Assembly (NCBI RefSeq): GCF_058153355.1
Contig: NZ_CM177019.1
DNA length: 64,000 bases
Strand: one strand, 5' to 3'
The first letter of the stretch is position 1; each line of letters begins with the position of its first letter. The notes under the pieces are model-generated. The model had not been told where the DNA came from. It did no database searches and worked only from the letters and a program-made list of their open reading frames with translations. This document shows, one piece after another, positions 792 through 41,471 of this stretch. Both the position numbers and the translations under genes were made by a program.

Positions 792-957
792 GTAACCTCC
801 CGTGGAATAAGTTTGAAGGCGTTGTTGCCAGATGGCGGATGTTGTTATTGCCTGATGCGATGCTGACGCATCTTACAAGGCCTACACGGCACTCGACCCG
901 TAGGCCGGATAAGGCGTTCGCGCCGCATCCGGAATCCACCCTCTGGCAAAAGGCAGC

Positions 958-1995: not shown

Positions 1996-3546
1996 ATGCC
2001 CACTTCTCATGAAAATGCACTGCAACAACGTTGCCAGCAAATTGTCACCAGTCCGGTACTTAGCCCGGAGCAGAAGCGCCATTTTCTGGCGCTGGAAGCA
2101 GAAAACAATCTGCCTTACCCACAGCTTCCTGCCGAAGCCCGCCGCGCGCTGGATGAAGGTGTAATCTGCGATATGTTTGAAGGTCATGCGCCGTATAAAC
2201 CGCGCTATGTCTTACCCGATTACGCCCGTTTTTTGGCCAACGGTTCCGAATGGCTGGAGCTGGAAGGCGCAAAAGATCTTGATGACGCACTCTCTCTGCT
2301 GACCATTCTTTACCACCACGTTCCTTCGGTCACATCGATGCCGGTCTACCTGGGGCAACTGGATGCGTTGTTGCAACCGTATGTTAGAATTCTAACACAA
2401 AACGAGATCGATATTCGAATAAAACGTTTCTGGCGTTACCTCGACAGAACCCTGCCAGACGCCTTTATGCACGCCAATATTGGCCCATCTGATTCACCCA
2501 TTACCCGTGCGATTTTACGCGCAGACGCAGAGCTGAAGCAGGTTTCACCGAACCTGACTTTTATCTACGATCCTGAAATCACCCCTGATGACCTGCTGCT
2601 GGAAGTGGCGAAAAACATCTGTGAATGTAGCAAACCGCACATCGCCAACGGTCCCGTGCATGATAAAATTTTCACAAAAGGGGGCTACGGGATTGTGAGC
2701 TGTTACAACTCACTGCCGTTAGCGGGTGGTGGCAGTACGCTGGTACGCCTTAACCTGAAAGCCATTGCCGAGCGCAGTGAATCGCTGGATGATTTCTTTA
2801 CGCGCACTCTACCGCACTACTGCCAGCAGCAAATCGCCATCATCGATGCGCGGTGTGAATTCCTCTATCAACAATCACACTTCTTTGAGAATAGCTTCCT
2901 GGTGAAAGAAGGGCTGATTAACCCTGAACGTTTTGTGCCAATGTTTGGCATGTACGGACTGGCAGAAGCGGTTAACTTGTTGTGTGAGAAAGAAGGAATT
3001 GCCGCACGTTACGGTAAAGAAGCCGCTGCGAATGAAGTGGGTTATCGCATTAGCGCGCAACTGGCGGAGTTTGTCGCCAATACCCCCGTGAAATATGGCT
3101 GGCAAAATCGCGCCATGCTACACGCACAGTCGGGGATAAGTTCCGATATCGGCACCACGCCGGGCGCGCGTTTGCCGTATGGCGATGAGCCAGATCCGAT
3201 CACCCATCTGCAAACTGTCGCCCCGCATCATGCTTATTATTATTCCGGCATCAGCGACATTTTGACGCTCGACGAAACCATCAAACGTAATCCGCAGGCG
3301 CTGGTACAGCTTTGCCTCGGTGCCTTTAAAGCCGGAATGCGTGAATTTACCGCCAATGTCAGCGGTAACGATCTGGTTCGCGTTACCGGTTATATGGTGC
3401 GTTTGTCGGATTTAGAAAAATATCGTGCCGAAGGTTCACGTACCAATACCACCTGGCTGGGAGAAGAAGCCGCACGCAACACTCGTATTCTGGAACGCCA
3501 GCCGCGCGTGATAAGCCATGAACAGCAGATGCGCTTTAGTCAGTAA
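1996..3546 (+). CDS. yjjI: glycyl-radical-enzyme-like protein YjjI
   Basis: ORF 1867..3546; start at the [15 protein letters not shown] Met gives 516 aa as remembered for YjjI; followed by an overlapping radical-SAM activase gene. Confidence 0.85.
2382..2397. promoter_or_regulatory. DeoR operator-like perfect palindrome TGTTAGAATTCTAACA (deoP1 region)
   Basis: Perfect 16-bp palindrome exactly 600 bp from the 1782..1797 site, matching the known ~599 bp spacing of deo O1/O2; lies inside the yjjI reading frame. Confidence 0.7.
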
Positions 3547-4381
3547 GATTATCCCCTTCTCCTGCGTTGACGGGCCAGGCAGTCGTCTGGCTCTGTTTTT
3601 ACAGGGCTGTAATCTGCGCTGCAAAAACTGTCACAATCCGTGGACAATGGGGCGCTGTAATGATTGCGGGGAGTGCGTGCCACAGTGTCCGCATCAGGCG
3701 TTGCAGATTGTTAACAGCAAAGTAGTGTGGAACGCAGCCGTCTGCGAGCAGTGTGATACCTGCCTGAAGATGTGTCCACAACACGCTACGCCGATGGCGC
3801 AATCCATGAACGTGGACGAGGTGCTTAGTCACGTCCGCAAAGCGGTGCTGTTTATTGAAGGGATAACGGTAAGCGGCGGTGAAGCCACGACCCAGTTGCC
3901 GTTTGTGGTGGCGCTGTTTACTGCTATCAAAAATGATCCACAACTGTGTCATCTCACCTGTCTGGTGGACAGTAACGGCATGTTGAGCGAAACCGGCTGG
4001 GAAAAATTACTCCCAGTGTGCGACGGCGCGATGCTCGACCTCAAAGCGTGGGGTGGCGCGTGTCATCAACAGCTAACCGGACGCGATAATCAGCAGATCA
4101 AGCGCAGCATTAGTCTGCTTGCCGAGCGCGGCAAACTGGCAGAACTGCGTTTGCTGGTAATCCCAGGCCACGTGGATTATTTGCAGCATATCGATGAGCT
4201 GGCGGCGTTTATCAAGGGACTTGGCGATGTTCCGGTACGCCTGAACGCGTTTCATGCCCACGGCGTGTATGGCGAGGCGCAAAGCTGGGCGAGCGCCACG
4301 CCGCAAGACGTTGAGCAATTGGCTGATGCGTTACGGGAGCGCGGGGTGAGCCGGTTGATATTTCCGGCGCTGTATTTGTGA
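3518..4381 (+). CDS. yjjW: glycyl-radical enzyme activating protein (radical SAM, ferredoxin-like Cys clusters)
   Basis: 287-aa ORF with CxxxCxxC-type and multiple CxxC clusters; overlaps the yjjI stop; K-12 synteny. Confidence 0.85.
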
Positions 4382-4382
4382 C

Positions 4383-4510
4383 ATGCCGGATGTGGCCTAC
4401 GGTTCGGCACAGACCTGTAGGCATGATAAGACGCGTCAGCGTCGCATCAGGCATTGTGCGCCAACTGCCGGATGCGGCGTGAACGCCTTATCCGGCCTAC
4501 GAAGGGCAGA
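4383..4510. repeat. BIME: two REP palindromic units in the yjjW/yjjV convergent intergenic region
   Basis: Contains GCCGGATGCGGCGTGAACGCCTTATCCGGCCTAC (4467..4500) and a GATAAGACGCGTCAGCGTCGCATCAGGC unit, both canonical E. coli REP sequences. Confidence 0.85.
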
Positions 4511-5293
4511 CTACCCACGAACGTTAAACACCGCATACGTGTTATTAAGCAACACTTCGGCAATCTCATCCGCGGGTTCCGGGCGTAACTCGCACAGCAC
4601 GGCAAACACACGGGCGGCCTGTTCAGGGCGATTAGGCTGCCCCTGAAAACCATTGAGCGGCATATCTGGTGCGTCGGTCTCCAGCAACAACGATGCCAGC
4701 GGCAGCTTTGCGATGACATCGCGGGTTTTACTGGCGCGTGGATAGGTGATAGTACCGCCTACGCCAATTTTGTAGCCCAGCTGCACAAACCGTTCGGCCT
4801 GTTGCAGGCTGCCAGAAAAACCATGAACCACACCAGTGCGTGGCAAATTTTGGCGTTTAAGATGCATCGCCAGTTTGTCGTGCGTGCGCCGTGAATGAAG
4901 GATCACCGGCAGATCGTAGCGTTTCGCCAGTTTCAGTTGTTCATCAAGCAACCACTGCTGCCTCTCAAATTGCGGATCGTCACCAAAGAGATCCAGGCCG
5001 ATCTCCCCCACCGCCACCACCTTCGTCGGACGTCTTCCCAACGCCTGCTGTAACTGATCCAGCGATGCATCGTTATGTTTTTCCAACATCCCCGGATGCA
5101 ACCCTAAAGCGGCATACAGCGGTTGATAATTTTCCGCTAACGCCTGCACGCGGGCAAAATTTGCCGCCTCGGTGGCCGGAACAATGATCTTGCCTACGCC
5201 CGCTTGTGCCGCGCGTTGCAGGCTGGCCTCTTCATCGCCACTAAACGGCGGGAAATCAAAATGGCAGTGGGTGTCGATAAAACGGCAAATCAA
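4511..5293 (-). CDS. yjjV: TatD-family metal-dependent DNase/hydrolase
   Basis: 260-aa ORF (MICRFIDTHCHFDFPPF...), TatD-like HxH motif at the N-terminus; K-12 synteny. Confidence 0.85.
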   Translation of the reverse strand: MICRFIDTHCHFDFPPFSGDEEASLQRAAQAGVGKIIVPATEAANFARVQALAENYQPLYAALGLHPGMLEKHNDASLDQLQQALGRRPTKVVAVGEIGLDLFGDDPQFERQQWLLDEQLKLAKRYDLPVILHSRRTHDKLAMHLKRQNLPRTGVVHGFSGSLQQAERFVQLGYKIGVGGTITYPRASKTRDVIAKLPLASLLLETDAPDMPLNGFQGQPNRPEQAARVFAVLCELRPEPADEIAEVLLNNTYAVFNVRG

Positions 5294-6363
5294 GCCAAAT
5301 CCTCATTGTTAAATGTCGGGTCGTTCGCCTGTGGAGCGTCTATCACCTCGGTAACCAGCGTATCGTTGGCGACGGGTGCAGGCGGAATAACGATCGACTC
5401 CGGCGTCACCACCGGCACCAGATGGCGGCTCAGCGGCGCTTTTTCAGTCAATAACTTACCGACCGTTGCCAGAAAATAACGCCCGCATAAACGCCCAAGT
5501 TTATAGTCTTCACGCAGCGCCGGAATCCGACTGCCGAGCGCGATACTATGTAATGGCTTCGGCGGATAAATTTCGAATATCCTCAACTGGCCCGGTGGTT
5601 TCTCAATAAATTGCTGAATCTCACGATAGCTGGTTTCATGATGCTGCACCAGATTGACCAGCGGCTGCAGGCTACTGTCACCCAGCCAGCGTTCCATGCG
5701 TTTGAACCACTGCGGCGTGTAGTACATTTGTGACGGCACAGTGCGGATGACGACTAACGTTTTTGCGCCCTGCCTTGCTGCCTCTTTAACCGGGATCGCA
5801 TCACTGATCCCGCCATCCAGGTAATTAATGCCTTCCAGCGACACTCCGCTACGATAAAAGCCCGGTATCGCACTGGAGGCGCGAATCACATCCAGCCAGT
5901 TCTGTTTGTTTGGCAAAAAGTAATTCGGCGCATAGTCATCCTGACGACAAGCGCACATATAAAACGATTTGCCGCTGTCAAATAGCCGCGCTGCGGTGTC
6001 CATTTGCAACGGCATCTGGCTTGCGGTGGCCTCCACCAGCCAGTCGAGATCGATAAGATTTCCTCCACGGACAAAGCGCAATGGATCGAAAAATTCGCGT
6101 TTTGTGGTATAGCGCATGATGACTTTGCGCGCGTAACCGGGCTGATTGCAGATATACGCCGAGAGGTTCTGCGCCCCGGCAGATGTGCCGAGATAAAGAT
6201 CGAAAGGATTAAACTGCGCGCGCATAAACTCATCCAGCACGCCAGCTGTGAAAATTCCACGCTGTCCGCCGCCTTCGCACACCAGAGCAATCCGTCCAGG
6301 CTGGAACGGCCTTAGCGACAACGGCGCAATATTACCAAGCGTTACAGGTATTCGCTGCCCCAC
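5290..6363 (-). CDS. yjjU: patatin-like phospholipase
   Basis: ORF 5290..6399; GxGxxG (CEGGGQRGIFTAGVL) and GTSAG serine motif typical of patatin family; start trimmed to the GTG giving ~357 aa. Confidence 0.8.
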   Translation of the reverse strand: MGQRIPVTLGNIAPLSLRPFQPGRIALVCEGGGQRGIFTAGVLDEFMRAQFNPFDLYLGTSAGAQNLSAYICNQPGYARKVIMRYTTKREFFDPLRFVRGGNLIDLDWLVEATASQMPLQMDTAARLFDSGKSFYMCACRQDDYAPNYFLPNKQNWLDVIRASSAIPGFYRSGVSLEGINYLDGGISDAIPVKEAARQGAKTLVVIRTVPSQMYYTPQWFKRMERWLGDSSLQPLVNLVQHHETSYREIQQFIEKPPGQLRIFEIYPPKPLHSIALGSRIPALREDYKLGRLCGRYFLATVGKLLTEKAPLSRHLVPVVTPESIVIPPAPVANDTLVTEVIDAPQANDPTFNNEDLA

Positions 6364-7770: not shown

Positions 7771-9357
7771 TTAATGCTCGCGAGTCTGGTGGAACTGAAC
7801 GTCCGGATAACGTTCCTGCGCCAGGCGCAGGTTGACCATGCTGGTAGCGATGTAAGCGAGGTTATCGCCGCCATCAAGCGCCAGTTGGCTTTCGTTCTTA
7901 CGCTTGAACTCTTCGAATTTCTTCGCGTCCGCACATTCTACCCAGCGTGCAGTGGCAACGTTGACTGACTCATACACTGCTTCAACGTTGTATTCGCTCT
8001 TCAGGCGCGCTACCACCACATCAAACTGCAGCACACCAACCGCACCAACGATCAGGTCGTTGTTGGAGATCGGACGGAACACCTGCACCGCGCCCTCTTC
8101 GGAAAGCTGTACCAGCCCTTTGAGCAGCTGTTTTTGCTTCAGCGGATCTTTCAGGCGGATACGACGGAACAGTTCCGGCGCAAAGTTCGGAATACCGGTG
8201 AACTTCATCATCTCCCCCTGGGTAAAGGTGTCGCCGATCTGAATAGTGCCGTGGTTGTGCAGACCAAGGATGTCGCCCGGATACGCTTCCTCAACATGCG
8301 AACGGTCGCCCGCCATAAAGGTCAGCGCGTCGGAGATCACCACATCTTTCGCGGTGCGCACCTGGCGCAGCTTCATGCCTTTTTCATATTTACCGGATAC
8401 CACGCGCATAAACGCCACGCGGTCGCGGTGTTTCGGGTCCATGTTGGCCTGAATTTTAAATACGAAGCCGGTAAATTTATCTTCGCTCGCCTCTACGGTA
8501 CGGGTATCAGTCTGACGCGGCATCGGCGCAGGTGCCCACTCTACCAGGCCATCCAGCATATGATCGACGCCGAAGTTACCCAGCGCAGTACCAAAGAACA
8601 CTGGAGTAATTTCGCCCGCAAGGAACAATTCTTTGTCGAACTCGTTAGACGCGCCTTTCACCAGTTCCAGTTCGTCACGCAGCTGCTGTGCCAGATCTTC
8701 ACCAACCGCAGCATCGAGATCCGGGTTATTCAGCCCTTTAACAATACGGACTTCCTGAATGGTGTGACCTTTACCGCTCTGATAGAGATAGGTTTCGTCT
8801 TTATAAAGGTGGTAAACGCCTTTAAACAGCTTGCCGCAGCCAATCGGCCAGGTGATCGGCGCACAGCCGATTTTCAGCTCGTTCTCAACTTCATCGAGCA
8901 GCTCCATCGGGTCGCGGATATCACGGTCAAGTTTGTTCATAAAGGTGAGGATCGGCGTGTCGCGCAGACGGGTAACTTCCATCAGCTTGCGGGTACGATC
9001 TTCAACACCTTTTGCGGCGTCGATAACCATCAGGCAGCAGTCCACCGCCGTCAGAGTACGATAGGTATCTTCCGAGAAGTCTTCGTGCCCCGGGGTGTCG
9101 AGCAGGTTAACCAGGCAGTCGTGATACGGAAACTGCATCACAGACGTAGTAATGGAGATCCCACGCTGCTTTTCCATCTCCATCCAGTCCGACTTAGCGT
9201 GCTGGTTGGAACCACGGCCTTTTACTGTACCGGCAGTCTGAATGGCCTGTCCGAACAGCAGCACCTTCTCGGTGATGGTCGTTTTACCGGCGTCCGGGTG
9301 AGAAATAATTGCAAAGGTTCTTCTTTTCGCTACCTCTGCGGCCAAAAGGCTTGTCAT
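7771..9357 (-). CDS. prfC: peptide chain release factor 3 (hybrid: first ~16-21 codons supplied by the prophage)
   Basis: GTPase motifs [20 protein letters not shown] and NKLD; start ATG at 9355-9357 reads [15 protein letters not shown], whereas the displaced host version [16 protein letters not shown] is found at 48839..48913. Confidence 0.9.
9296..9309. repeat. prophage attL core (14-bp identity ATTATTTCTCACCC on the prfC coding strand)
   Basis: Identical 14-mer at 48848..48861; flanking prfC-homologous sequence diverges on one side and phage/host sequence on the other. Confidence 0.7.
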
Positions 9358-9374
9358 AATTGTTGTCTCTTTGA

Positions 9375-9395
9375 TTATGTACAATCATATGTACA
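9375..9395. repeat. integrase arm-type site cluster (TTATGTACAATCATATGTACA)
   Basis: 20/21 identical to 48664..48684; further (A/T)TGTACA copies nearby on both arms; both lie inside the prophage ends. Confidence 0.55.
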
Positions 9396-9517
9396 AAGAA
9401 AAATTCATGCCGCTGATTGTACATTTTGGAGGTATCAGAGCATAGCAGAACATGATCAGTAGGTGTATTTGTAGCCAAAGAACATTTGTATATGCAGCAA
9501 TCTTTGCTCTATTGACA

Positions 9518-9533
9518 CTGTTTATTCATACAG
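9518..9533. promoter_or_regulatory. LexA (SOS) box CTGT-N8-ACAG overlapping a TTGACA -35 element upstream of the dinI-like gene
   Basis: CTGTTTATTCATACAG immediately after TTGACA (9512..9517); a weaker second copy at 9546..9561. Confidence 0.55.
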
Positions 9534-9577
9534 TTAAAAATAATACTGTATAAAAACGCAGTAGAGAGGGGTTTTTT

Positions 9578-9826
9578 ATGCGTATTGAGATCTGCATAGC
9601 CAAAGAGAAAATGACTAAAATGCCAAACGGTGCTGTGGATGCGTTAAAGGAAGAATTAACTCGGCGCATCAGTAAGCGTTATGACGATGTAGAAGTGATC
9701 GTAAAAGCCACCAGCAATGATGGGCTTTCTGTTACACGCACCGCAGATAAGGATTCTGCAAAAACATTTGTTCAGGAGACTCTGAAAGATACCTGGGAGT
9801 CTGCTGACGAGTGGTTTGTTCACTAA
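9578..9826 (+). CDS. DinI-family damage-inducible protein (prophage-encoded)
   Basis: 82-aa [13 protein letters not shown]...[16 protein letters not shown] resembling DinI (conserved C-terminal TWESADxWFV); SD GAGAGGGG upstream. Confidence 0.8.
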
Positions 9827-9856
9827 TTAACACGTAAAATCTGTAACGGCTGGAAA

Positions 9857-10060
9857 TCATTCAATACTCGCACTATCGAAAGTTCGCCAGCCAACCGCAG
9901 CACGTTCTTGCATACGACGTGTCTGCGGTTTTATATAATCCCAGCCGGTCCAGTTTCCAGACAACCAGCGTGTCACCTGCCGATAATGTCCTGTCAACGC
10001 ATTACGTTGTAGATCGATTTTCTGGTCATTTGTTGATACGCAAACATAGCCAATAAGCAT
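9857..10060 (-). pseudogene. Gin/Pin/Hin-family serine DNA invertase, degraded remnant
   Basis: N-terminus MLIGYVCVSTNDQKIDLQRNAL matches the invertase catalytic N-terminus, then the frame breaks; a second frame encodes GDTLVVWKLDRLG (a Gin motif); only ~200 bp of a ~580 bp gene remains. Confidence 0.8.
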
Positions 10061-10126
10061 GGTAGCTCCCTCTGACAAAAGCAGGAATGATGCCATTTAC
10101 TCGTTATTTCTGCATTTTCATAAACA

Positions 10127-10148
10127 TTGGTTTACAGGAAGCGGTAAA
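10127..10148. repeat. gix-like recombination site (right), TTGGTTTACAGGAAGCGGTAAA
   Basis: Inverted repeat of 13182..13203 (21/22 bp); contains the GGTTTACAGGAA half-site characteristic of Gin/Cin/Pin crossover sites. Confidence 0.75.
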
Positions 10149-11085
10149 TCAGGCTTCTGGCGCATTACAGAAAAACCAGAACGGTGCAGATATTCCAGGA
10201 AAAGATACCTTCACCAAAAATATTGGTGCCTGTCGCGCATATAGCGCATGGGTGGATATTGGTGGCGATAGTCAGGTCTGGACAACTGCGCAATTTATTT
10301 CGTGGCTGGAGAGTCAGGGAGCATTTAACCATCCTTACTGGATGTGCAAAGGCTCATGGGCTTATGCAAATAATAAGGTCATTACAGATACAGGTTGCGG
10401 AAATATTTGTCTTGCAGGTGCTGTGGTGGAAGTTATTGGCACCCGCGGCGCAATGACCATACGCGTTACCACGCCGGGCACGTCCAGCGGCGGCGGAATC
10501 ACTAACGCTCAATTCACTTATATTAATCATGGTGATGCTTACGCTCCTGGCTGGCGACGAGACTACAACACGAAAAACCAGCAGCCTGCATTTGCTTTAG
10601 GGCAAACAGGAAATACCGTCGGAAACGACAAAGCCGTTGGCTGGAACTGGAATAGCGGGGTCTATAACGCAAATATTGGTGGCGCAACAACATTAATCCT
10701 CCACTTCAATATGAATACGGGGAGTTGCCCTGCCGTACAGTTCCGTGTGAATTACAGGAACGGCGGTATTTTTTATCGTTCAGCGCGTGATGGTTATGGA
10801 TTTGAGGCTGGCTGGTCAGAGTTTTACACCACAACACGCAAGCCATCAGCGAGAGATGTTGGCGCATATACGCAGGCAGAATGTAACTCAAGGTTTATTA
10901 CAGGTATTCGCCTTGGTGGTCTGTCATCTGTTCAGACATGGAATGGTCCCGGCTGGTCTGACAGGTCAGGTTATGTTGTTACCGGTTCCGTTAACTCAAA
11001 CAGAGATGAACTAATTGATACAACTCAGGCAAGGCCAGTTCAGTATTGCATTAATGGGACGTGGTATAACGCGGGGAGTATTTAA
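10149..11085 (+). CDS. alternative (currently silent) tail-fibre C-terminal cassette, no own start codon
   Basis: Begins at the gix site with GLQEAVNQ, homologous to GLQETVNR in the expressed fibre; ends ...RPVQYCINGTWYNAGSI like the expressed fibre C-terminus. Confidence 0.7.
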
Positions 11086-32636: not shown

Positions 32637-33689
32637 TTATTTCCCCACCAGTTCACTTACCTCTTTCACCGTCTGGTTAAACCGATCTGACTCAAACTCA
32701 ACACCTAACGCCCGACGCCCCAGCGCCATTGCTGCTTTTATTGTGGAACCGGATCCCATAAAGAAATCAGCAACCAGATCGCCTGGTCGACTACTGGCAT
32801 TGATTATTTGCCGGAGCATATCCGCAGGCTTCTCACACGGATGTTTACCCGGGTAGAACTGAACGGGTTTATGCGTCCAGACGTCGGTATAAGGCACGGA
32901 AACTGATACGGAGAAATAGCGCCGGAGAGTTTTAAACTCATCCAGCAATTCAGAATATTTGCGATTCAGTGAATCATAAGATGCCACCAGCTGGTGGTGT
33001 GTGTGTTCCAGTTGTTGTTCCTGAAACTTCTCTGCCGCTATACGGGAAAACAGTGCCTGCAACTTTCGGTAGTCAGCCTCGTTCGGCAACTGCCACTGAC
33101 TGGCACCAAACCAGTGGGAAACCATATTTTTCTTACCAGTGGCTTCGGCAATCTGTTTTGCCGTTATCCCCAGTTCGGCACGAGCATCCCTGAAATACGA
33201 AATCAGCGGTGCCATTATGTGCTGTTTGAGTTCCCTTTCTTTTGCCGCATAGCCGTCACTTTTGCCGCGATATGGCCCCTGGTAATGTTCAGCAAACAGA
33301 ACGCGCTCTGTTGCGGGAAAATATGCGCGCAGACTTTCTTTATTACACCCGTTCCATCGTCCGGACGGCTTCGCCCAGATGATATGGTTAAGCACGTTGA
33401 AACGTTCACGCATCATGATCTCGATATCAGATGCGAGGCGATGTCCACAGAACAGGTAAAGGCTTCCGGCAGGTTTCAACACCCGCCAGAACTGGGCCAG
33501 ACAATGGTCCAGCCACTTAAGGTAATCTTCGTCCCCTTTCCACTGATTGTCCCAGCCGTTGGGTTTCACCTTGAAGTACGGCGGATCGGTAACAATCAGG
33601 TCAATGGAATCATCAGGCAGGGACTGAATAAAATACAGGCAATCAGCGTTGATTAAATCAGCACTGTTTATTTTTACAGTATTTTTCAT
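32637..33689 (-). CDS. DNA methyltransferase (N6-adenine or N4-cytosine, beta-class)
   Basis: 350 aa; motif IV TDPPYF near the N-terminus and AdoMet motif FFMGSGST near the C-terminus. Confidence 0.8.
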   Translation of the reverse strand: MKNTVKINSADLINADCLYFIQSLPDDSIDLIVTDPPYFKVKPNGWDNQWKGDEDYLKWLDHCLAQFWRVLKPAGSLYLFCGHRLASDIEIMMRERFNVLNHIIWAKPSGRWNGCNKESLRAYFPATERVLFAEHYQGPYRGKSDGYAAKERELKQHIMAPLISYFRDARAELGITAKQIAEATGKKNMVSHWFGASQWQLPNEADYRKLQALFSRIAAEKFQEQQLEHTHHQLVASYDSLNRKYSELLDEFKTLRRYFSVSVSVPYTDVWTHKPVQFYPGKHPCEKPADMLRQIINASSRPGDLVADFFMGSGSTIKAAMALGRRALGVEFESDRFNQTVKEVSELVGK

Positions 33690-33838
33690 GGATCAGTAAG
33701 CGTAACTCTGGTAGGCTCACTCTGCTTTTGCGCTAAAGCAGTGGGCCGAGGTTCGCTTGTGACCAGTAAGCATGAGCGAATGGCTGGCAGGTGCTACCAA
33801 CACCCACCAGCCGCCCATTTTCACAAATTAAAAGCCCT

Positions 33839-34057
33839 TCATTGCTGAAGGCGTCTGTAACAGCCGAACTGGTAATCTGCCAGCCCCGCCATAACCAGCT
33901 GGGTCAGTATTAACTGACAGCGTTCGCGTGAAAGGTATGTGTTTTGTGCTATCTCCCCGACTGTTGCCGGTTCGACGCTTAATTCATTAAAAACAACTTT
34001 CGCCGTTTCTGTCATATCTAGCTGTTTTAGCATGTCTTTTTTCCTTCTGGTTAACAT
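33839..34057 (-). CDS. small hypothetical protein, possible winged-helix DNA-binding fold
   Basis: 72-aa ORF first downstream of the late promoter/terminator; SD present; no family recognised. Confidence 0.45.
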   Translation of the reverse strand: MLTRRKKDMLKQLDMTETAKVVFNELSVEPATVGEIAQNTYLSRERCQLILTQLVMAGLADYQFGCYRRLQQ

Positions 34058-34156
34058 GACATACCAATAACTCTTGTCTAAAAAGCCAGCAAGATAAAAA
34101 GTCAGTATTCACGACCACCAGCGTGTTTACCGTACTGCCAACATCAAGGCACAAAA

Positions 34157-34180
34157 AAACCCGCTCAGCGGCGGGTTCTT
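34157..34180 (-). terminator. intrinsic terminator (tR'-like) downstream of the late promoter
   Basis: Minus-strand CCCGCCGCTGAGCGGG hairpin followed by a T7 run. Confidence 0.65.
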
Positions 34181-34223
34181 AAATCTTATCAACGGTAGAC
34201 ATACAAAGCCCATCGTTGGGACA

Positions 34224-34252
34224 ATCTTATCCATATTTTTTGAAAAATGCAA
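34224..34252 (-). promoter_or_regulatory. late promoter (PR'-like): -35 TTGCAT, 17-bp spacer, -10 TAAGAT
   Basis: Sigma70-like elements on the minus strand immediately downstream of the Q-like gene and ~45-60 nt upstream of the terminator. Confidence 0.5.
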
Positions 34253-34283
34253 GAATTATGTCGTCATCTTCGGCGAAAATCAT

Positions 34284-35036
34284 TTATCTCGTCACTTTTC
34301 TTAATTGCGTCTCAGCATATGCTTCTTCCTGCCAGCACTTTGTCACCAGTTTATCAATGACATCTGCATATCCTTTGTACCACTGATAATCCGTCAAATC
34401 TGGTACCAGTTTCTGTACATGACACCGCGCCAGTGTCGTTGGTAAACGGCTAAACCGGTTTCCATTGCAACGTCCACAAATCTTATAAACAGGCCTGCCA
34501 TGAAGCCGGGTCCTTTTTTCATCCAGGACAATACCTTTACCCTTACACCCTCTGCACGCTGTGCTGACTTCTCCCTTACCATGGCAATGCTGACACAGTT
34601 CCTTTACCCACTCTTCCTTGATAACAGATTCCCCGCTTCTGGAGTGTTTCACCACTTCGCGCAATACATTATGAAATCCAGTACCAGCACAATGCTCACA
34701 GCAAGCCTTACTTGCCGCAGACCTGGAATAATCAGCAAAGGCAAAATTCACAAGGTAAGGAATGATCTGTAGCCGGGTTTCTTCACTCAATTTGTTCAAT
34801 GTCGGGTTATCCAGTGCCATCGCGTAATTGAGCAGACCTTCAATCGCAAACTGAGGATCCTGAATACCAAGTTTTGCCAGGAATAAGGCAAACCCAAGCG
34901 GTGCTTTCGACTGCACCATCCCCTGCGCAGCCATTACATCCGTAATTGTTAAACCACCAGAGCCTGTCGCCGGTGCGTCATCGCTCAATATTGGAGATTT
35001 TGGGGAGTAATATTTCGGTAAGGCTTCAAGGTTCAT
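34284..35036 (-). CDS. antitermination protein Q-like (Cys-rich zinc-binding)
   Basis: 250 aa with CEHCAGTG...CQHCHGKGE...CRGCKGKG...CGRCNG motifs; located just upstream of the late promoter/terminator pair. Confidence 0.65.
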   Translation of the reverse strand: MNLEALPKYYSPKSPILSDDAPATGSGGLTITDVMAAQGMVQSKAPLGFALFLAKLGIQDPQFAIEGLLNYAMALDNPTLNKLSEETRLQIIPYLVNFAFADYSRSAASKACCEHCAGTGFHNVLREVVKHSRSGESVIKEEWVKELCQHCHGKGEVSTACRGCKGKGIVLDEKRTRLHGRPVYKICGRCNGNRFSRLPTTLARCHVQKLVPDLTDYQWYKGYADVIDKLVTKCWQEEAYAETQLRKVTR

Positions 35037-35049
35037 GCTCGTTCTCCAC

Positions 35050-36045
35050 TTACGCCAGTACGCCTATTGCCAGCGCACGATCGATAAAACGAAATATCAG
35101 CTCCAGCTGGGAGCCATACTTCTCTTCAAATGCCGCGGTATCCGCATGCAACTCGTCGTGATGCTTTCTGCACAAAGGCAACACAAAGAGGTCATGCGCT
35201 TTTGTACCCATTCCGCCCTGACCGTGGCCTATCAGGTGGTGGGGATCATCAGCAGGCTTTCCACAACATGCACACGGCTGTGTCTTAACCCAGCGCGTGT
35301 ACTTTTCGTTAACCCAGCGGCGACGTTTTGGGCGTAACATAAAAGACTCCGGCGACTCCGGATCCACTTTCAGCGCCAGCACCTTTTTCACTTTATCCTG
35401 GATGATGCTGGTGGCAGGAACCGAAGGAACAAGGTCACTTTCCCGGGTGACAGACGGCACAACAGGCTTCGGTAATCTCAGTGCCTTACGGGCTGCACTT
35501 TCCGGCAAGGCACCCGCCAGGTCATTACGAACCAGCCACCAGCACAGTTCCGGCATTGTCACAACGTGACTATCATCAAAACCGAGATCCCGACGCACGA
35601 CAGACAACACCCAGCGGGCACAGTTATCCGTTGCCATTGATTCCAGCCGTTCCGTGAACTGATCGCGCAGCTGGTTATCGCAGTGCCAGCACAGACGGAT
35701 TGCGCCCGGCGCGTGTCGCATTGTGGTCATGTTCTCGCTGTGCCAGTCGGAATGAGGCCACTGACAGCCATTTTCACGAAGTAACCAGCTTTCAAGACAT
35801 TCCACGCCACCAGCACGACGGATCACTGCCTCATTGCGGAACACGCCCCGAACGGCAGGATCATCCGCCAGCGGTTGTGATACCGCCGGAACGGCACCAC
35901 TGGCGAAAGATGAATAACGTTCCGGCTCAGGCTCCAGCAGGACACGCCCCTGCATAAACAGGGGCATCAGCTCTGAACCTGGTCTGAACAATACGATCCC
36001 CATACGCGGGGCAATTTCAGGGGTCAGTAATGCTCTCACGGTCAC
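35050..36045 (-). CDS. DUF968-like prophage protein (HNH-like C-terminus)
   Basis: 331 aa; C-terminal CACCGKPADDPHHLIGHGQGGMGTKAHDLFVLPLCRKHHDELH. Confidence 0.6.
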   Translation of the reverse strand: MTVRALLTPEIAPRMGIVLFRPGSELMPLFMQGRVLLEPEPERYSSFASGAVPAVSQPLADDPAVRGVFRNEAVIRRAGGVECLESWLLRENGCQWPHSDWHSENMTTMRHAPGAIRLCWHCDNQLRDQFTERLESMATDNCARWVLSVVRRDLGFDDSHVVTMPELCWWLVRNDLAGALPESAARKALRLPKPVVPSVTRESDLVPSVPATSIIQDKVKKVLALKVDPESPESFMLRPKRRRWVNEKYTRWVKTQPCACCGKPADDPHHLIGHGQGGMGTKAHDLFVLPLCRKHHDELHADTAAFEEKYGSQLELIFRFIDRALAIGVLA

Positions 36046-36046
36046 C

Positions 36047-36874
36047 TCAATGAACGGTATCGAGCAGCTTTAACAGCTCAGGGAATCGGGATTCGAAGAA
36101 ATGCGGCTGCGTCTCGCGCGGATTTGCGGGACTGGTGATGTTCTTGCCGAACATGCAGCCTTTCGCTGTCAGCGACCAGAATTTTTTGATGTTGTTAATC
36201 GCGGTACGGCTGTATCGTTCGCGTTGTTCGACGATCCCCAGCTTCGCCATCTGGTGATATGCCTGATTAGCCGTCAGGCGGATACCATACTGTTTCAGCA
36301 GTGCACTCAGCGACAGCGTAGGGCGGCTTGAACCATCTGGCGCATCAGCAGGGGCATCAATGGCATAGATCGGCATAAGTTCAGGAAGACCAGCTACCTT
36401 TGATAATTTCTGGTATGCACCAAGTTTCGAGGAGTTTGACAGATTTAGAGTCTTTGCTGCTGATTCAAGCAGAATGACCCCGGATTTGATTTTGTCGGAT
36501 ATGGTTTCTTCTGGTGATGAATTATGAAGCGCATCAAAAGTACGTATCACTTTTAAGCTGAATGCCGGGCTGATCCACATTGCATATGCATAGACCAGCT
36601 CTTTACAGACATACGTCCCACCATTGCGCCCCTGAATGGTGATGACAGGAATACTACGGGAATCTCCCGTAGTTTCTTCTTCCAATAATTCCACAAGAGC
36701 CTTCGTTTCAGGACGACGCATAAACTCGTGAACTTCCAGCGAACGGGAGGAGCGATTCTCACCAGCAGCAAGAAGAGCAGCTTTCTGAAGGTCGTTAAGA
36801 CAGTAGTTAGATTCGAAGTACTGGCGCACAGAAACGCCATCAATTACAAGCAACTGATTCATTGGTTTCTCCAC
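36047..36874 (-). CDS. KilA-N domain protein (putative antirepressor)
   Basis: 275 aa; N-terminal region with ELVYAYAMWISPAFSLKVIRTF resembles KilA-N/Bro-N; preceded by a consensus SOS box. Confidence 0.6.
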   Translation of the reverse strand: MEKPMNQLLVIDGVSVRQYFESNYCLNDLQKAALLAAGENRSSRSLEVHEFMRRPETKALVELLEEETTGDSRSIPVITIQGRNGGTYVCKELVYAYAMWISPAFSLKVIRTFDALHNSSPEETISDKIKSGVILLESAAKTLNLSNSSKLGAYQKLSKVAGLPELMPIYAIDAPADAPDGSSRPTLSLSALLKQYGIRLTANQAYHQMAKLGIVEQRERYSRTAINNIKKFWSLTAKGCMFGKNITSPANPRETQPHFFESRFPELLKLLDTVH

Positions 36875-36959
36875 AAATTTTTATCCACGAGCGGGACTGC
36901 ACTCCCTTTTCGTTGATGCAGGATGCACTTACTGCGATTTTTAATAGTTATCAAGGGCA

Positions 36960-36979
36960 TACTGTTCATAAATACAGTA
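36960..36979. promoter_or_regulatory. LexA (SOS) box TACTGTTCATAAATACAGTA
   Basis: 20-bp palindrome matching TACTGT-N8-ACAGTA at both ends; ~85 bp upstream of the KilA-N gene start, in the RusA/KilA-N intergenic region. Confidence 0.6.
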
Positions 36980-37024
36980 TCTTTAACGAGGTAATACCCA
37001 AATTTAGGGTGTTGCTCAATTCCG

Positions 37025-37420
37025 TTACCGAGTTGCTAATTTGCAACTCGCTTTTTCGTACTTACTGATAGTGATCTCGACCTTCCCTTCCGGGATAACC
37101 GGTCCCCACTCCACCAGCATTCTTTTCACCTGACTGTCGTCTTCCCACACACCCGCGTGGGTCAGAGCGTCAAACAGCGCCTTGTTATAGTTGTCCAGAT
37201 CGCGGATCCGGTTATCCGGAGGAAACAACACGATCTCCACTGAAGCAGGTGCCGACGTTGGTTTCGGCAGACGACGTAACTGCTCAACTATTGCTGCGCA
37301 CGCCGCGCTCTGGAATTTGCGCCCCGCCGCGCTTATCAGGCTTTTACCAGCAAACGCCCCTTTGTTAGGGTGTCGCCAGTACGTATTCACGCTGGGCGGG
37401 AAAGGCAGGATCAGTTTCAT
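37025..37420 (-). CDS. Holliday junction resolvase RusA-like
   Basis: 131 aa; conserved RusA pattern (PPSVNTYWRH..., DLDNYNKALFDALTHAGVWEDDSQV). Confidence 0.8.
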   Translation of the reverse strand: MKLILPFPPSVNTYWRHPNKGAFAGKSLISAAGRKFQSAACAAIVEQLRRLPKPTSAPASVEIVLFPPDNRIRDLDNYNKALFDALTHAGVWEDDSQVKRMLVEWGPVIPEGKVEITISKYEKASCKLATR

Positions 37421-37743
37421 ACTTTCAGGCCTCTCTCATGTAACCAGTGGGTTGCACGCAGCCTTGCGTTTTCCTCACCGGCAAGCAGTGAGCGGATAAT
37501 CCCGACAGCCTCGCTGTCGTCGTCCTTCACCGCGGTATGAAGCGTTATCCCCCGGGCCACGCCACGCTTTATCGTGATGACGCCTTTTTTCTCCAGTGCG
37601 CGAAGATGCTCCACCGCTGCATTCACTGAACGGTATCCCAGCATGGTTGCCACCTCCTGATTGGTTGGCGGGAAGCCACGTTCTTTCTGGTAAGAAATCA
37701 GCATATCCAGCACCTGCTGCTGGCATTGAGTTAATGTCGTCAT
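37417..37743 (-). CDS. LexA N-terminal DNA-binding-domain homologue (no peptidase domain)
   Basis: 108 aa; LTQCQQQVLDMLISYQKERGFPPTNQEVATMLGYRSVNAAVEHLRALEKKGVITIKRGVARGITL aligns with the E. coli LexA N-domain at roughly half identity; there is no S24 peptidase region. Confidence 0.7.
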   Translation of the reverse strand: MTTLTQCQQQVLDMLISYQKERGFPPTNQEVATMLGYRSVNAAVEHLRALEKKGVITIKRGVARGITLHTAVKDDDSEAVGIIRSLLAGEENARLRATHWLHERGLKV

Positions 37744-38393
37744 GCCGCCATCTCCCTGACCAGTTTTTCCGCCTGCTGGCGAACCTGCGCCAGAAAGGCC
37801 TCACCACATGCCTCAAGTTCATCGCGCCCGATGTAGCTGATTGCCGGTCCCTTCCAGGTCTTGTCGAAAACAACAATAGCACCAGCGAAGAAAGCGCCTG
37901 TCGGCACCTGCTTCTCGTCCTTCGGTATAAACCAGGCAGGCAGTTCAAAACCAATACGCCCGCGAATAAAAGCAATATGATCTGCATCTTCCGGCCACCA
38001 CACTTCGCTGGTGGCAGCTTTGATCAGGAAAACATAGCGCCCGCCTTTATCACGCATGGCACTGGCATGTTTCATGATGTAACGCATGCCGGTGATGTAT
38101 TGCCCCTCATGCTGACTGGCGCGGCTGTATGGGGGATTACCAAAGGCAGCACCTTTAAGCTCCGCAAGACGTTCTGACCAGTCATGCGCCAGCGCGTTGT
38201 CTTCCGCCGTGTAATACGCGGCACATTTGGCGTTATCACCGTCAGTGAACAGATCCAGAACAAACGGACCAAACAAGGTGTTAATTCCCCAGAAAATGTT
38301 GTCCGGCGTGCGCCACTGATCGCCCACTTCCTTCAGTTCATGGGCTGGTTTGTTCCGCAGTTCTACCAGCGCCTGGCAATATTTATTACTCAT
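37740..38393 (-). CDS. phage N6-adenine DNA methyltransferase (Dam-like)
   Basis: 217 aa with FGNPPYS catalytic motif; typical lambdoid nin-region methylase. Confidence 0.8.
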   Translation of the reverse strand: MSNKYCQALVELRNKPAHELKEVGDQWRTPDNIFWGINTLFGPFVLDLFTDGDNAKCAAYYTAEDNALAHDWSERLAELKGAAFGNPPYSRASQHEGQYITGMRYIMKHASAMRDKGGRYVFLIKAATSEVWWPEDADHIAFIRGRIGFELPAWFIPKDEKQVPTGAFFAGAIVVFDKTWKGPAISYIGRDELEACGEAFLAQVRQQAEKLVREMAA

Positions 38394-38487
38394 TAAGCCC
38401 CCACGTAAAAAGCATCCGCAATGTCTCCGGAAGTACAGCCCGGATGGGCTTCAATGAATTTCTGAACGTCATTTAACAGACTCATGA

Positions 38488-39480
38488 TCACCCCCTGAAT
38501 CCTGCCGGGATCTGGCTGTAGTCCACGTTGTCGTAACTGGCTTTGAAGTACGGGTCTTCACGTTTTTCTGTGTGCGTGCTGACGGACGGCGATAAGCGCA
38601 GGGAAAGCTCATCCCATTTTTCCCGCAACTTCGACGGGCTGAGCACGTTACGGCACCAGAACGGATCGCGGCTGACGCGGCTGTACATCTCGCAGATTTG
38701 TTTGTGAGTACGACCATCCTGCACACACATCAGGCGAATTTCGTTTGCCCATGCTGTCCAGTTCGGTTCTTTGGGACGAACCACCTCGCCGTCACATTCG
38801 GCGGCCTGCTCGTACAGGGCGATGATTTTTTTCCAGAGCCACTGTGCGCAGGTCAAATCATCCTGCGTTCCCCACTGGCGCTTTTTAGGGCTGAATACAA
38901 CCGCATCAGGATGGCGAGTTAAAAACTCCTGTTCAGCCGTTTGCGTGTCCGGTTGCGAAGCGTCCGGACGAGAAGAGGTTTTATTCTCTGTAGTAATCTC
39001 TGTTGTATTCTCTGTAAGATCATTGGGCCATTTTGACCCGATGACAGCGTGTCGTTTTGAACCAATGGATCGTGTCATTTTGCGCCCATCCATCAGGTCA
39101 CTTTGACCCGATGGAGAAGTGCATTTTGACCTGATGGATTCGTTCACTTTGACCTCTTCTAAAAGCTCACTTTCATAGTTGATCGTGTAGAAGTTGGTCA
39201 TGTCACGCTTCGATTTATTGAGTTGCTCGCGACGCAAAACCCCAAGTGATTTCAAGCTTGCAAATGTGCGTTTCAGAGTGGACTCTGACCAGAACGGAAA
39301 CTGCTCCAGCCACTGTTCTGTCGTGTTATAAACCCAGCGAATTCCGCCATGCTCTGTGCCTGAATTCGTTTCATTCAGCCAGTAATGAAGCTGCTGCAAC
39401 ACAATTGCCTCATTCAGACCAATACGGCATGCAAGATCACGATTTATCACAATGGGCTGGGATGTCATTAACAGGCTCAT
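38488..39480 (-). CDS. replication initiator/replisome organiser with DnaT-like C-terminus; origin iterons embedded
   Basis: 330 aa; internal iterons; C-terminus ...NVDYSQIPAGFRG mirrors the host DnaT C-terminus ...[10 protein letters not shown] present in this window. Confidence 0.7.
   Translation of the reverse strand: MSLLMTSQPIVINRDLACRIGLNEAIVLQQLHYWLNETNSGTEHGGIRWVYNTTEQWLEQFPFWSESTLKRTFASLKSLGVLRREQLNKSKRDMTNFYTINYESELLEEVKVNESIRSKCTSPSGQSDLMDGRKMTRSIGSKRHAVIGSKWPNDLTENTTEITTENKTSSRPDASQPDTQTAEQEFLTRHPDAVVFSPKKRQWGTQDDLTCAQWLWKKIIALYEQAAECDGEVVRPKEPNWTAWANEIRLMCVQDGRTHKQICEMYSRVSRDPFWCRNVLSPSKLREKWDELSLRLSPSVSTHTEKREDPYFKASYDNVDYSQIPAGFRG
39028..39157. repeat. phage replication origin iterons: six direct repeats, core TTTGACC(C/T)GATGG, ~23.5 bp period
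   Basis: Repeat cores start near 39031, 39055, 39078, 39101, 39125 and 39148; located inside the initiator gene as lambda ori is inside O. Confidence 0.7.
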
Positions 39481-39489
39481 GACCGACCT

Positions 39490-39828
39490 CTATTTCCCTG
39501 AATTTACGACGAAACTGTTCGAGCGGACTGAAGCATTCATGTTCATAGCCTTCACGGAGGTAGATAACCCGTTGTGTTTCCGGCTCCCAACGAATGACTC
39601 TGACGGGCACTCCGTAGTGATCTTTGAACCAGCGGTTAACTTGTCGCAAAGGACTGTCTCCTTCTGCCGGTTGAAATCACCCACAGCCCACTCTGCAAAG
39701 CTGTGGGTTACAATTTCCCTGTCACCTGGTACATTCACTGCATAGCAATACTCCACCTTCGCTTTTCCACCCGGTACAGGAAGCGCAATCAGTTGCGAGC
39801 GACGGTAGTGTGTTGTTAAACTGTTCAT
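39490..39828 (-). CDS. hypothetical early protein
   Basis: 112 aa; ATG overlaps the stop of the upstream gene (ATGA coupling) and the stop lies 9 bp before the initiator start. Confidence 0.5.
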
Positions 39829-40409
39829 GCGTTAGTTTCTCCACAGACACAAAACGCCACGACGCCCGGAGCTGCACACTCGCGGGCGTCACTCTTTTCT
39901 GGAGCGCAAAAGATTTTGTAGACCAGTGCTGCATGCTCCTGGAGCTTCGAAATTGACAGATACAACTCATCATTAATTACTGTCTGCTCGTGTGGCTCCA
40001 CTACCCCATCTTCGATTGCCGAACGAATCTGCTTTGAGTAACTCCCGATCTGTTCGATGACTTCCAGCAGACGCTGGTTTATATCGGCGTTCTCTACTTC
40101 CTCAATTTCAGGAAGCGATACAAACACCCCACCAGCAGACTGTGCGACAGCATCCGCAATGTAGTGAGTGCCAGCCGCGCGCTGTAAAATCATTGCCCAT
40201 CCCAGCGGGAAAATCTGATCGCCATCTGCACGAAGGCGGTTGAATAAAGCGTTCTCTGTTACATCCAGCCACTCAGCAGCTTCAGCGTAACCTCCCGGCA
40301 ACGCCGCGATAGTTTTTCTGACAGCTTTCACGTACCACTCAGGCTGTTTTTCTACTTTCCAGTGATGCTTACCCACGGCTATCTCCTTAAAACTGTGGTT
40401 ACTTTCCAT
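39825..40409 (-). CDS. early regulatory protein (YdaT/CII-like position)
   Basis: 194 aa directly downstream of the Cro-like gene; resembles Rac-type YdaT as far as memory allows. Confidence 0.5.
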
Positions 40410-40647
40410 CAGATAAGTCTTTAATCTTTTGAAAAATATCTGGACGTAATTTTTCTTTTGATACGCCAGTGGTCATTTCAATGAATATCGAGAGCTTTGC
40501 AGGGGGACGCTTTTCTCTGTTCAACCAGTTCCAGACATGTTGTTGCTTTACTAAACGACCACTGCTGGCTGTGAGCTTCCGAGCCAATTCTGATTGACCA
40601 CCAGCCAGAGCGATTGCCTCTGATAAGGCTAATTGCTCAGGTGTCAT
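40399..40647 (-). CDS. Cro-like HTH regulator (YdaS-like)
   Basis: 82 aa, divergent from the CI-like repressor across an operator region. Confidence 0.7.
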   Translation of the reverse strand: MTPEQLALSEAIALAGGQSELARKLTASSGRLVKQQHVWNWLNREKRPPAKLSIFIEMTTGVSKEKLRPDIFQKIKDLSDGK

Positions 40648-40650
40648 AGC

Positions 40651-40784
40651 TTTCTCCTATCTGTAAGTAGTAAAGTTGTTGATAACTTCGATTATACAAC
40701 TACAACAACTTTTATTACAACTTTTAGATGTTGGAAAGCTAAAACATAAAGTTGTAACCTCAATAAAAACGAGGGGGATATGTT
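40651..40784. promoter_or_regulatory. OR-like operator/promoter region with repeated AAGTTGT / ACAACTT half-sites
   Basis: Divergent intergenic region between cro-like and cI-like genes with at least four copies of the heptamer in both orientations; the same motif recurs at 41650..41700. Confidence 0.55.
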
Positions 40785-41471
40785 GTGAAAACATTGGCAG
40801 AAAGACTAAAAAGCGAAAGAGAAAAAGCAGGAATGAGTCAGGCGCAACTAGCTGAAAAAATTGGACTTTCACAACAATCCGTAGCGAAAATCGAGAATGG
40901 AGAAACTCAACAGCCTCGGAAAATTAAAGAGATTGCTAAAGTGTTAGGGGTTTCTCAAAAGTGGTTGCAATTGGGCATTGAGGATAACGCGTCTTTCCCA
41001 AACCTTGTTGTAAAGGAGGCTGAAAGTACAACATTAGATCCTGACATTTTTGCAAACATTCCTGTCCTAGATGTCGAATTATCAGCGGGTAATGGATGTT
41101 TGGCTGAAATAGTTGAATCAACTGTAGACTGGTTCCCGCTAAGAAGGATTGATTTAAGGAAAGCTGGTGTATGTGTCTCCAATGCAAAGATCGTAAAAAT
41201 TTGGGGTAATAGTTTACTACCTGTACTTAACAATGGAGATTTTGTTGCTGTTGATGTTTCCCAAACAGTTCCTATTCGTGATGGGGATCTTTATGCTATA
41301 CGTGATGGCGTATTACTTAGAGTTAAAATATTGATCAATTTACCTGACGGTGGTCTGATTCTAAGAAGTTTCAATAAAGATGAGTATCCAGATGAAATAC
41401 TCACCTTCGAAGATAGGCGTTCCAGAATTCACGTTATAGGTAGAGTATTCTGGTCATCGCGCACTTGGTAA
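40785..41471 (+). CDS. CI-like repressor (HTH_XRE N-domain + S24 LexA-type peptidase C-domain)
   Basis: 228 aa; GMSQAQLAEKIGLSQQSVAKIENG HTH; C-terminal domain with Ser (GNSLLP) and Lys (RVKIL) typical of autocleaving repressors; GTG start with SD GAGGGGG. Confidence 0.85.
   Translation: MKTLAERLKSEREKAGMSQAQLAEKIGLSQQSVAKIENGETQQPRKIKEIAKVLGVSQKWLQLGIEDNASFPNLVVKEAESTTLDPDIFANIPVLDVELSAGNGCLAEIVESTVDWFPLRRIDLRKAGVCVSNAKIVKIWGNSLLPVLNNGDFVAVDVSQTVPIRDGDLYAIRDGVLLRVKILINLPDGGLILRSFNKDEYPDEILTFEDRRSRIHVIGRVFWSSRTW

Follow-up and report, generated by a model that had tools for sequence, protein, structure and literature searches.

The DNA analysed here is a 64,000-nucleotide stretch (NCBI RefSeq assembly GCF_058153355.1, contig NZ_CM177019.1; hereafter the window), which carries an Escherichia coli lambdoid prophage of the SfV/SfIV type. 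Our subject is an early gene of this prophage that encodes a 108-amino-acid protein related to the DNA-binding part of LexA (Table 1); the 3.5 kb around it are 97.5-98.2% identical to many E. coli chromosomes. We tentatively propose that this LexA-like protein is a RecA-insensitive surrogate of LexA that would re-repress SOS boxes after host LexA has been cleaved, a reading that we hold to be possible rather than probable.

A LexA DNA-binding domain followed by a helical hairpin

Residues 1-65 of the protein matched the complete Pfam model LexA_DNA_bind (PF01726, 1-65/65, E-value 3.8e-19), and no Pfam match to Peptidase_S24 was obtained, in agreement with an initial annotation of the window that had described a LexA winged-helix domain lacking the S24 domain. 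The NCBIfam lexA profile TIGR00498 aligned over positions 1-91 of 203 only and scored 70.8 bits, below its cut-off of 110.95. The chain stops at residue 108, and the S24 peptidase/dimerisation domain with its Ser-Lys dyad is absent. We found a match to the N-terminal domain of E. coli LexA (1lea; E-value 7e-16, ~50% identity over residues 1-69), and the AlphaFold2 (AF2) model of the protein, with an overall predicted local distance difference test score (pLDDT) of 84, superimposed on LexA in the LexA-DNA complex 3JSO at 1.0 Å over 67 columns (51% identity). Hidden Markov model alignments to LexA extended through the hinge as far as the cleavage-site position, where A88-G89 of the protein aligns with A84-G85, the LexA autocleavage site. 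After a floppy linker, the C-terminal tail was modelled as two helices, residues 76-87 and 93-103 (pLDDT ~88). The protein is the LexA N-terminal winged-helix region through the hinge, with the S24 domain replaced by a 35-residue two-helix hairpin. It looks like a LexA fragment cut just beyond the hinge whose tail may have turned into a small helical module.

The tail is a family trait. PHROG_362 matched the protein end to end, tail included (residues 1-108 against 1-106/106, E-value 1.1e-59), and the tail consensus EAVxxIRxLLAxExxARxRAxxxL is common to homologues down to 38% identity. In 14 aligned sequences spanning identities down to the same value, A97 and L101 are invariant, as are the wing residues R64, G65 and I66 in the family alignment. 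The Ala-Gly pair at the position of LexA A84-G85 is not conserved, with AK, VG, AN, ER, TR and others found in its place. As the protein has neither the catalytic Ser and Lys residues nor a conserved Ala-Gly site, activated RecA cannot cause its self-cleavage.

The gene is widespread. By megablast it is present in 2232 of 5426 complete E. coli genomes; it corresponds to orf42 of phage SfV (98% identical) and also occurs in SfII, SfIV, cdtI, mEp460 and Stx2a/Stx2c-converting phages, and the PHROG_362 family as a whole spans 38-100% identity across thousands of genomes. PHROG_362 is labelled 'transcriptional repressor', the Prokaryotic Genome Annotation Pipeline (PGAP) name is 'LexA family transcriptional regulator' (WP_000210151), and phage records speak of a 'LexA-like protein' or 'LexA DNA binding domain protein' or, wrongly, of 'SOS-response repressor and protease LexA'. 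Three records (KF030445.1, LR595862.1 and MT225100.1) use this last name or 'LexA repressor' for the 108-residue protein, which is misleading as the protease domain is absent. The existing annotations of the SfV orf42 family are based on similarity only. Our search of full-text literature, with most subscription journals outside its coverage, found no experimental work on SfV orf42 or its enterobacterial relatives; the only characterised phage-encoded truncated LexA homologue that we found is gp6 of GIL01 (PMC6182141). The earlier statement that this is not a recognised characterised module therefore needs qualification: it stands as far as experiments on the enterobacterial family are concerned, and it does not stand in that the gene was already annotated as SfV orf42/PHROG_362 and has a characterised analogue in GIL01 gp6.

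Operon context and SOS boxes in the window

Because it shares ATGA overlaps with both dam and rusA, the LexA-like gene belongs to the early operon, is coupled to these neighbours in translation and has no promoter of its own. Its place inside the CI-controlled pR (nin) operon means that the protein is made only after CI inactivation or on infection and, being downstream of a CI-repressed pR, that it cannot repress SOS-box genes in a lysogen when SOS begins. Re-repression of such genes could be conceived only after prophage derepression.

Table 1. Genes and sequence features of the window that bear on the LexA-like gene
Feature	Coordinates	Strand	Remarks
Tandem SOS boxes (starts 9516, 9544)	9516..9563		22.6 and 18.5 bits; before the prophage dinI-like gene
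dinI-like gene	9578..9826	+	PHROG DinI, E-value 4e-31
Late-operon N4/N6 DNA methyltransferase	32637..33689	-	downstream of Q and pR'
Second strong SOS box	33662..33681		22.5 bits; within codons 3-9 of the methyltransferase gene above
Q-type late-gene antiterminator	34284..35036	-	last gene of the transcription unit; late genes next
DUF968/HNH protein	35050..36045	-	downstream partner kept in all relatives
KilA-N protein, 271 aa	36047..36862	-	Pfam KilA-N, E-value 2e-15; PHROG_129 'transcriptional regulator'
Intergenic region, 162 bp	36863..37024		between rusA and the KilA-N gene
Consensus LexA (SOS) box TACTGTTCATAAATACAGTA	36960..36979		23.7 bits, among the best training sites
Weak promoter-like element (putative)	36991..37019	-	picked by eye; -35 TTGAGC (37019..37014), 17-nt spacer, -10 TATTAC (36996..36991)
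rusA, Holliday-junction resolvase	37025..37420	-	ATG overlaps stop of LexA-like gene (ATGA)
LexA-like gene (LexA DNA-binding domain only), 108 aa	37417..37743	-	winged helix-turn-helix, residues 1-68; low-confidence linker, 71-74; helical hairpin, 76-87/93-103
Dam-type N6-adenine methyltransferase	37740..38393	-	TGA stop overlaps ATG of LexA-like gene (ATGA)
O-like replication gene	38488..39480	-	early rightward operon
cII/YmfL-like	39825..40409	-	early rightward operon
cro-like	40399..40647	-	early rightward operon
CI-type prophage repressor	40785..41471	+	HTH_3 and Peptidase_S24; cleavable type

We searched the window for LexA boxes with a symmetrised matrix made from 19 E. coli LexA boxes, a basis to be treated with care; the training sites score 12-27 bits on it. 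The matrix recovered the published Gifsy-2 dinI LexA box, 19 bp before dinI as published, and shuffled windows gave 0.3 matches of at least 15 bits per 64 kb. Three observations of the initial annotation held up: the exact sequence of a 20-bp palindrome upstream of the KilA-N gene, a CTGT-N8-ACAG box before the dinI-like gene, which proved to be a tandem pair, and an apparently cleavable CI. The palindrome (the 36960 box) lies 438 bp from the 3' end of the LexA-like gene and 98 bp upstream of the KilA-N ATG (36862), and it starts 11 nt downstream of the promoter-like element of Table 1; a consensus scan of 36700..37200 called no sigma-70 promoter. The CTGT-N8-ACAG pattern occurs three times in the window against 0.7 expected, and three occurrences were reached in 4 of 100 shuffles, so that the count by itself is weak evidence.

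A hairpin with 11-bp arms (CGAGTTGCTAA/TTTGCAACTCG) at 37029..37050 overlaps the 3' end of rusA, just ahead of the putative -35 element. As its T-run lies only on the plus strand, it is no canonical terminator of the nin operon; terminator-like palindromes also stand ahead of the LexA boxes of the Gifsy phages. When 33600..41000 was searched for conserved inverted repeats, only the CI operators (40672..40757), this hairpin and the SOS boxes came up.

Other boxes were noted in the window and in related prophages. The dinI-like gene and its tandem boxes sit at the prophage end adjoining prfC, and SOS boxes ahead of phage dinI genes are a known arrangement. The methyltransferase box is found at the same place in SfV and in many loci of the IMG/VR database. 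In Buttiauxella and Kosakonia relatives its spacer has changed from AAAAATAA to AAATTTAA, which alters the encoded amino acids and keeps CTGT/ACAG and thus suggests selection on the DNA motif; in a Salmonella locus (L093) this box lies just upstream of the called gene start. Many IMG/VR loci also carry near-perfect SOS boxes, of 25.5-26.8 bits, inside CI-type (helix-turn-helix plus S24) repressor genes, 3.2-4.8 kb upstream of the LexA-like gene. Gene context was checked for two of these loci (L011, box 5546..5565 in an open reading frame (ORF) at 5082..5774, minus strand; L084, box 836..855 in a gene at 369..1064, minus strand), and in both the box falls within the codons around repressor residue 70-76. 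At least two immunity types have such boxes, and the window's own cI has none.

The initial annotation had singled out the LexA-like gene and the 36960 box as a combination, and this did not survive comparison with other prophages. Among 80 IMG/VR loci with a 98-100% identical LexA-like gene, rusA follows the gene in 77 and a KilA-N homologue lies downstream in 77. All but one of these 77 homologues are of the SfV-orf44 type: they begin ~15 bp beyond rusA, and both the intergenic region and the box are absent. The arrangement of the window, with a 36960-type box, was found in a single locus of the 80 (L007), and the box-bearing intergenic region is present in 184 E. coli genomes, compared to the 2232 with the LexA-like gene. 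This region and the accompanying KilA-N N-terminus are also present in phages SfIV, VIT_AJPSC and PhiR49_1, and the region is a minority mosaic insert that brought in a different KilA-N N-terminus. The LexA-like gene and the 36960 box are no conserved module.

The window gene belongs to a short clade, together with gp43 of mEp390 and homologues in prophages of Enterobacter, Kosakonia, Buttiauxella, Citrobacter and Atlantibacter, in which the gene order is replication gene or methylase, LexA-like gene, rusA, an optional Ant/KilA-N gene, DUF968 and Q. In 12 related loci of this clade, no SOS box of at least 20 bits was found within -1600..+1200 bp of the gene. Over the whole range of 38-100% identity, the most constant neighbours are DUF968 and Q, not an SOS box.

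The KilA-N gene is the first gene after the 36960 box, and its slot is antirepressor-like, being filled by KilA-N, ANT/pRha or ORF6N proteins in relatives. Since LexA-controlled antirepressor loci outside the immunity region are established (PMC3121763), the simplest reading of the box is that host LexA places KilA-N, DUF968 and Q of this prophage under SOS control. It can be carried further, to the view that the LexA-like gene and the box are unrelated neighbours, the box serving as a host-LexA operator for KilA-N (and DUF968-Q) as in induction of the Gifsy/186/N15 type, and the LexA-like protein acting elsewhere or on the host only. The mosaic distribution of the box, its absence from 76 of the 77 loci in which the same gene is followed by a KilA-N homologue, and the established antirepressor precedent all speak for such a separation. 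As a full explanation we consider it rather doubtful, as it leaves the role of the LexA-like protein unsaid. It is also compatible both with a LexA surrogate and with a regulator of the GIL01 gp6 kind, and a protein that bound SOS boxes in general would act on the 36960 box too.

Relatives in operons headed by an SOS box

A second group of homologues, 118-165 amino acids long, carries an N-terminal extension and matches PHROG_362 over its full length. This N-extended clade is very abundant in Klebsiella and is also found in Raoultella, Enterobacter, Cedecea and Salmonella; we sampled 8 loci from 7 lineages. In all 8, the LexA-like gene lies in an operon headed by an SOS box of 20.5-27.1 bits. 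Prophage DNA has a background of 0.043 such boxes per kb, so the presence of a box in every one of these operons cannot be chance. The box is followed by a gene for DinI, a RecA_C fragment or a full RecA (5 of the 8 loci) or by nothing, then by an ORF of 75-85 codons and the LexA-like gene; downstream come a 67-codon ORF, sometimes RusA, DUF968, and a Q-type antiterminator or an unannotated ORF. The upstream sequence was read in four loci, and a terminator-like hairpin stands just upstream of the box in three of them (L088, L093 and L177; L094 is not clear).

The first slot after the box seems reserved for modulators of RecA filaments. In the Klebsiella-type locus L177 it is occupied by a full-length RecA homologue of 361 residues (2598..3683), in L174 by a 95-residue protein that matches RecA_C only (4310..4597), and elsewhere by DinI. 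The product of the 75-85-codon ORF belongs to PHROG_1813 and has the motif GYA.IRC.D..VVA..SFP..RA.MYR, with a GTG start in most loci (L088, 5713..5961; L093, 4724..4951; L094, ~5697..5950; L177, 3725..3958; L179, 3703..3960). The ORF is invariably placed downstream of the SOS box and ahead of the LexA-like gene, in the slot that the small antirepressor has in the Gifsy phages; BLASTP found no similarity between its product and the antirepressor GftA.

The layout of the N-extended operon is that of the LexA-controlled induction operon of the Gifsy phages (terminator, LexA box, dinI, antirepressor, irsA), for which Lemire et al. gave experimental proof (PMC3121763). Gifsy-2 has its box, dinI and gftA in register with the N-extended operon, and likewise a counterpart of the downstream gene for a 66-67-residue product (45% identity, E-value 4e-20). 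The two differ in the third gene, where the LexA-like gene replaces irsA. We considered irsA as a possible member of the LexA-like family and rejected it: the Gifsy-2 irsA homologue STM1020 is an unrelated, non-LexA-like protein of 200 residues and is equivalent by slot only.

With this layout, production of the LexA-like protein of the N-extended clade coincides with the cleavage of host LexA and takes place alongside SOS modulators of the RecA/DinI type; a replacement repressor with autoregulation is wired in this way. The window gene does not share this position. The window resembles the Gifsy phages in that its KilA-N gene, which is antirepressor-like, is preceded by an SOS box and its dinI is under SOS control. 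It differs in that its LexA-like gene has no box upstream, lies upstream of the 36960 box and belongs to the pR operon, behind the replication genes and dam, in a phage whose CI is cleavable. When genome contigs were searched with an N-extended profile, the matches were mostly host lexA, and family members were found only in L094, L095, L097, L098, L099 and L111. In the Salmonella locus L093, an AcrVA2-like gene and a Cas1 gene (8794..10357) lie just past the prophage late region.

The company kept by these genes could also point to protein-protein contacts made by the winged helix or the hairpin, with RusA, DUF968, RecA filaments or the S24 domain of LexA or CI as partners, or the protein could be a decaying LexA fragment without function. 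The close linkage between the stop of the gene and the rusA start in the short clade, the DinI or RecA homologues in the N-extended operons and the similarity to LexA that runs through the hinge to the cleavage-site position would fit one or other of these ideas. We nevertheless regard them as very unlikely: rusA is missing from several operons that keep the LexA-like gene, the Ala-Gly pair is not conserved, the residues that are conserved are those that read DNA, and a decaying fragment would hardly be conserved in thousands of genomes over a range of 38-100% identity. A functional partnership with RusA was set aside, as three N-extended lineages keep the LexA-like gene without rusA.

A candidate RecA-insensitive LexA surrogate

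E. coli LexA contacts DNA through S39, N41, A42, E44 and E45 (PMC3091678). The window protein keeps four of the five (S39, N41, A42 and E45) and has valine at position 44, its recognition stretch reading S-V-N-A-A-V-E-H where LexA has S-P-N-A-A-E-E-H. Among 229 family cluster representatives that carry the tail, S39 is kept in 226, N41 in 225, A42 in 209 and H46 in 207, while E45 is kept in 169 (74%) and replaced by aspartate in 24. Most of the CTGT-reading surface is under selection, with one acidic contact systematically lost. The pattern fits retained recognition of the LexA box, perhaps with higher affinity or a slightly shifted preference, and would also allow for drift elsewhere; the recognition helix is closer to that of host LexA than a changed specificity would require. 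A LexA-like job is supported by the near-invariance of S39, N41 and A42, by the frequent retention of E45 and by the N-extended relatives in SOS-box operons. The initial annotation had pictured a non-cleavable mimic that keeps phage genes repressed during SOS. The four kept contacts and the SOS-linked relatives lend weight to the mimic itself, and its timing has to be revised, as a pR-driven gene cannot act in a lysogen when SOS sets in.

As we envisage it, inactivation of CI or infection would switch on the early operon and the LexA-like protein would appear. It would bind CTGT-N8-ACAG boxes, probably as a dimer or cooperatively by way of the helical hairpin, and would re-repress them at the time when host LexA is being destroyed. 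In the window prophage the putative targets are the box ahead of KilA-N, DUF968 and Q, the dinI boxes and the methyltransferase box, which would be turned down once pR transcription is running; in the cell at large they would be the host SOS regulon and those antirepressors of co-resident prophages that LexA controls. SOS-driven transcription would be shut off at a time set by the phage, or would come under negative feedback, and in the N-extended clade the protein may form the negative-feedback arm on its own promoter.

Several points weigh against this proposal, beyond the rarity of the window's arrangement, the mosaic origin of the 36960 box and the lack of strong boxes around the short-clade genes described above. 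Position 44 always has an uncharged residue and is glutamate in none of the 229 representatives (A in 106, V in 66, N and L in 20 each, F in 6), E45 has become L, T, A, G or I in some lineages and N41 has become Y in one, whereas true gamma-proteobacterial LexA retains NAAEEHL; looser constraint at contact residues is what drifting specificity, as in GIL01 gp6, would look like. LexA dimerises through its C-terminal domain, which the protein lacks, and no confident dimer was obtained when AF2 was run on a tandem of the protein, connected through a Gly-Ser linker of 30 residues and given a tandem alignment to match (predicted TM-score 0.35, pLDDT 64.6). Since host LexA would in any case occupy the boxes near the relatives, co-occurrence is no proof of binding by the phage protein; for every family member, binding to CTGT-N8-ACAG is predicted from residues. 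Finally, deletion of irsA, the unrelated gene in the equivalent Gifsy slot, had no measurable effect on induction (PMC3121763).

The main rival is accordingly a LexA-derived factor with a diverged operator of its own, an activator or repressor that would tune the downstream DUF968-Q/late region. GIL01 gp6, a truncated LexA homologue of a Bacillus thuringiensis tectivirus, provides the precedent: it binds the non-LexA palindrome GaCACAnnTGTGaC instead of the LexA box of its host, and the late promoter is activated by it (PMC6182141). The loss of glutamate at position 44, the differences between lineages at positions 41, 43 and 45 and the constancy of DUF968 and Q as neighbours all agree with a similar history here. 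We judge it somewhat unlikely, as S39, N41 and A42 are near-invariant and E45 is present in most representatives, no further conserved palindrome was found in 33600..41000 that could serve as such an operator, and the N-extended genes always lie downstream of an SOS box. Like the protein proposed here to be a LexA surrogate, gp6 is a phage-encoded LexA DNA-binding domain without protease, an early product that acts after the loss of LexA. The two differ in that gp6 is essentially the bare domain, while the SfV orf42 family has a further 40-residue conserved tail, retains most LexA contacts and resides in lambdoid prophages of Enterobacteriaceae; the homology considered between them is their shared LexA ancestry.

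Relative to E. coli LexA itself, the surrogate would combine the same fold with most of the base contacts. Like LexA(Ind-) variants such as lexA3, it would resist RecA-stimulated cleavage, and uncleavable LexA is known to block both SOS and Gifsy induction (PMC3121763). It differs from LexA in having the hairpin instead of the S24 domain, and hence neither the LexA dimer interface nor RecA docking, in the replacement of E44, and in being encoded in a phage early operon rather than by an autoregulated chromosomal gene. The outcome proposed here is that of another GIL01 protein, gp7, which keeps LexA-type repression in place under DNA damage and down-regulates host genes and a co-resident prophage (PMC4551915, PMC9700832). 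The means are different: gp7 is no DNA-binding LexA homologue and acts by binding host LexA and inhibiting its autocleavage, a manipulation of LexA occupancy that also holds back a rival prophage and shows control of this kind to be of advantage to phages (PMC9700832).

In its widest form, our proposal would be that an uncleavable surrogate present in ~40% of E. coli genomes, Stx2a and Stx2c phages included, switches the SOS regulon off after the phage has committed itself, capping SOS mutagenesis and repair, silencing the antirepressors of rival prophages and so setting an induction hierarchy, and serving as a feedback arm in the Gifsy-type operon of Klebsiella and Enterobacter. Taken as a whole, we think this unlikely. 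Should the protein indeed bind SOS boxes, numerous prophages of enterobacteria, including Shiga-toxin phages, carry a damage-proof LexA of their own, which would give the phage control over the SOS response, over competition between prophages and possibly over toxin timing, an element that present models of how lambdoid phages are induced do not contain. Should it bind elsewhere, the family would join GIL01 gp6 as another, independent example of a LexA head put to use by phages as a new regulator. In both cases the label 'LexA repressor / SOS-response repressor and protease' is partly wrong, because there is no protease. For E. coli, Shigella, Klebsiella and Salmonella, the family may matter to the control of SOS and to competition among prophages.

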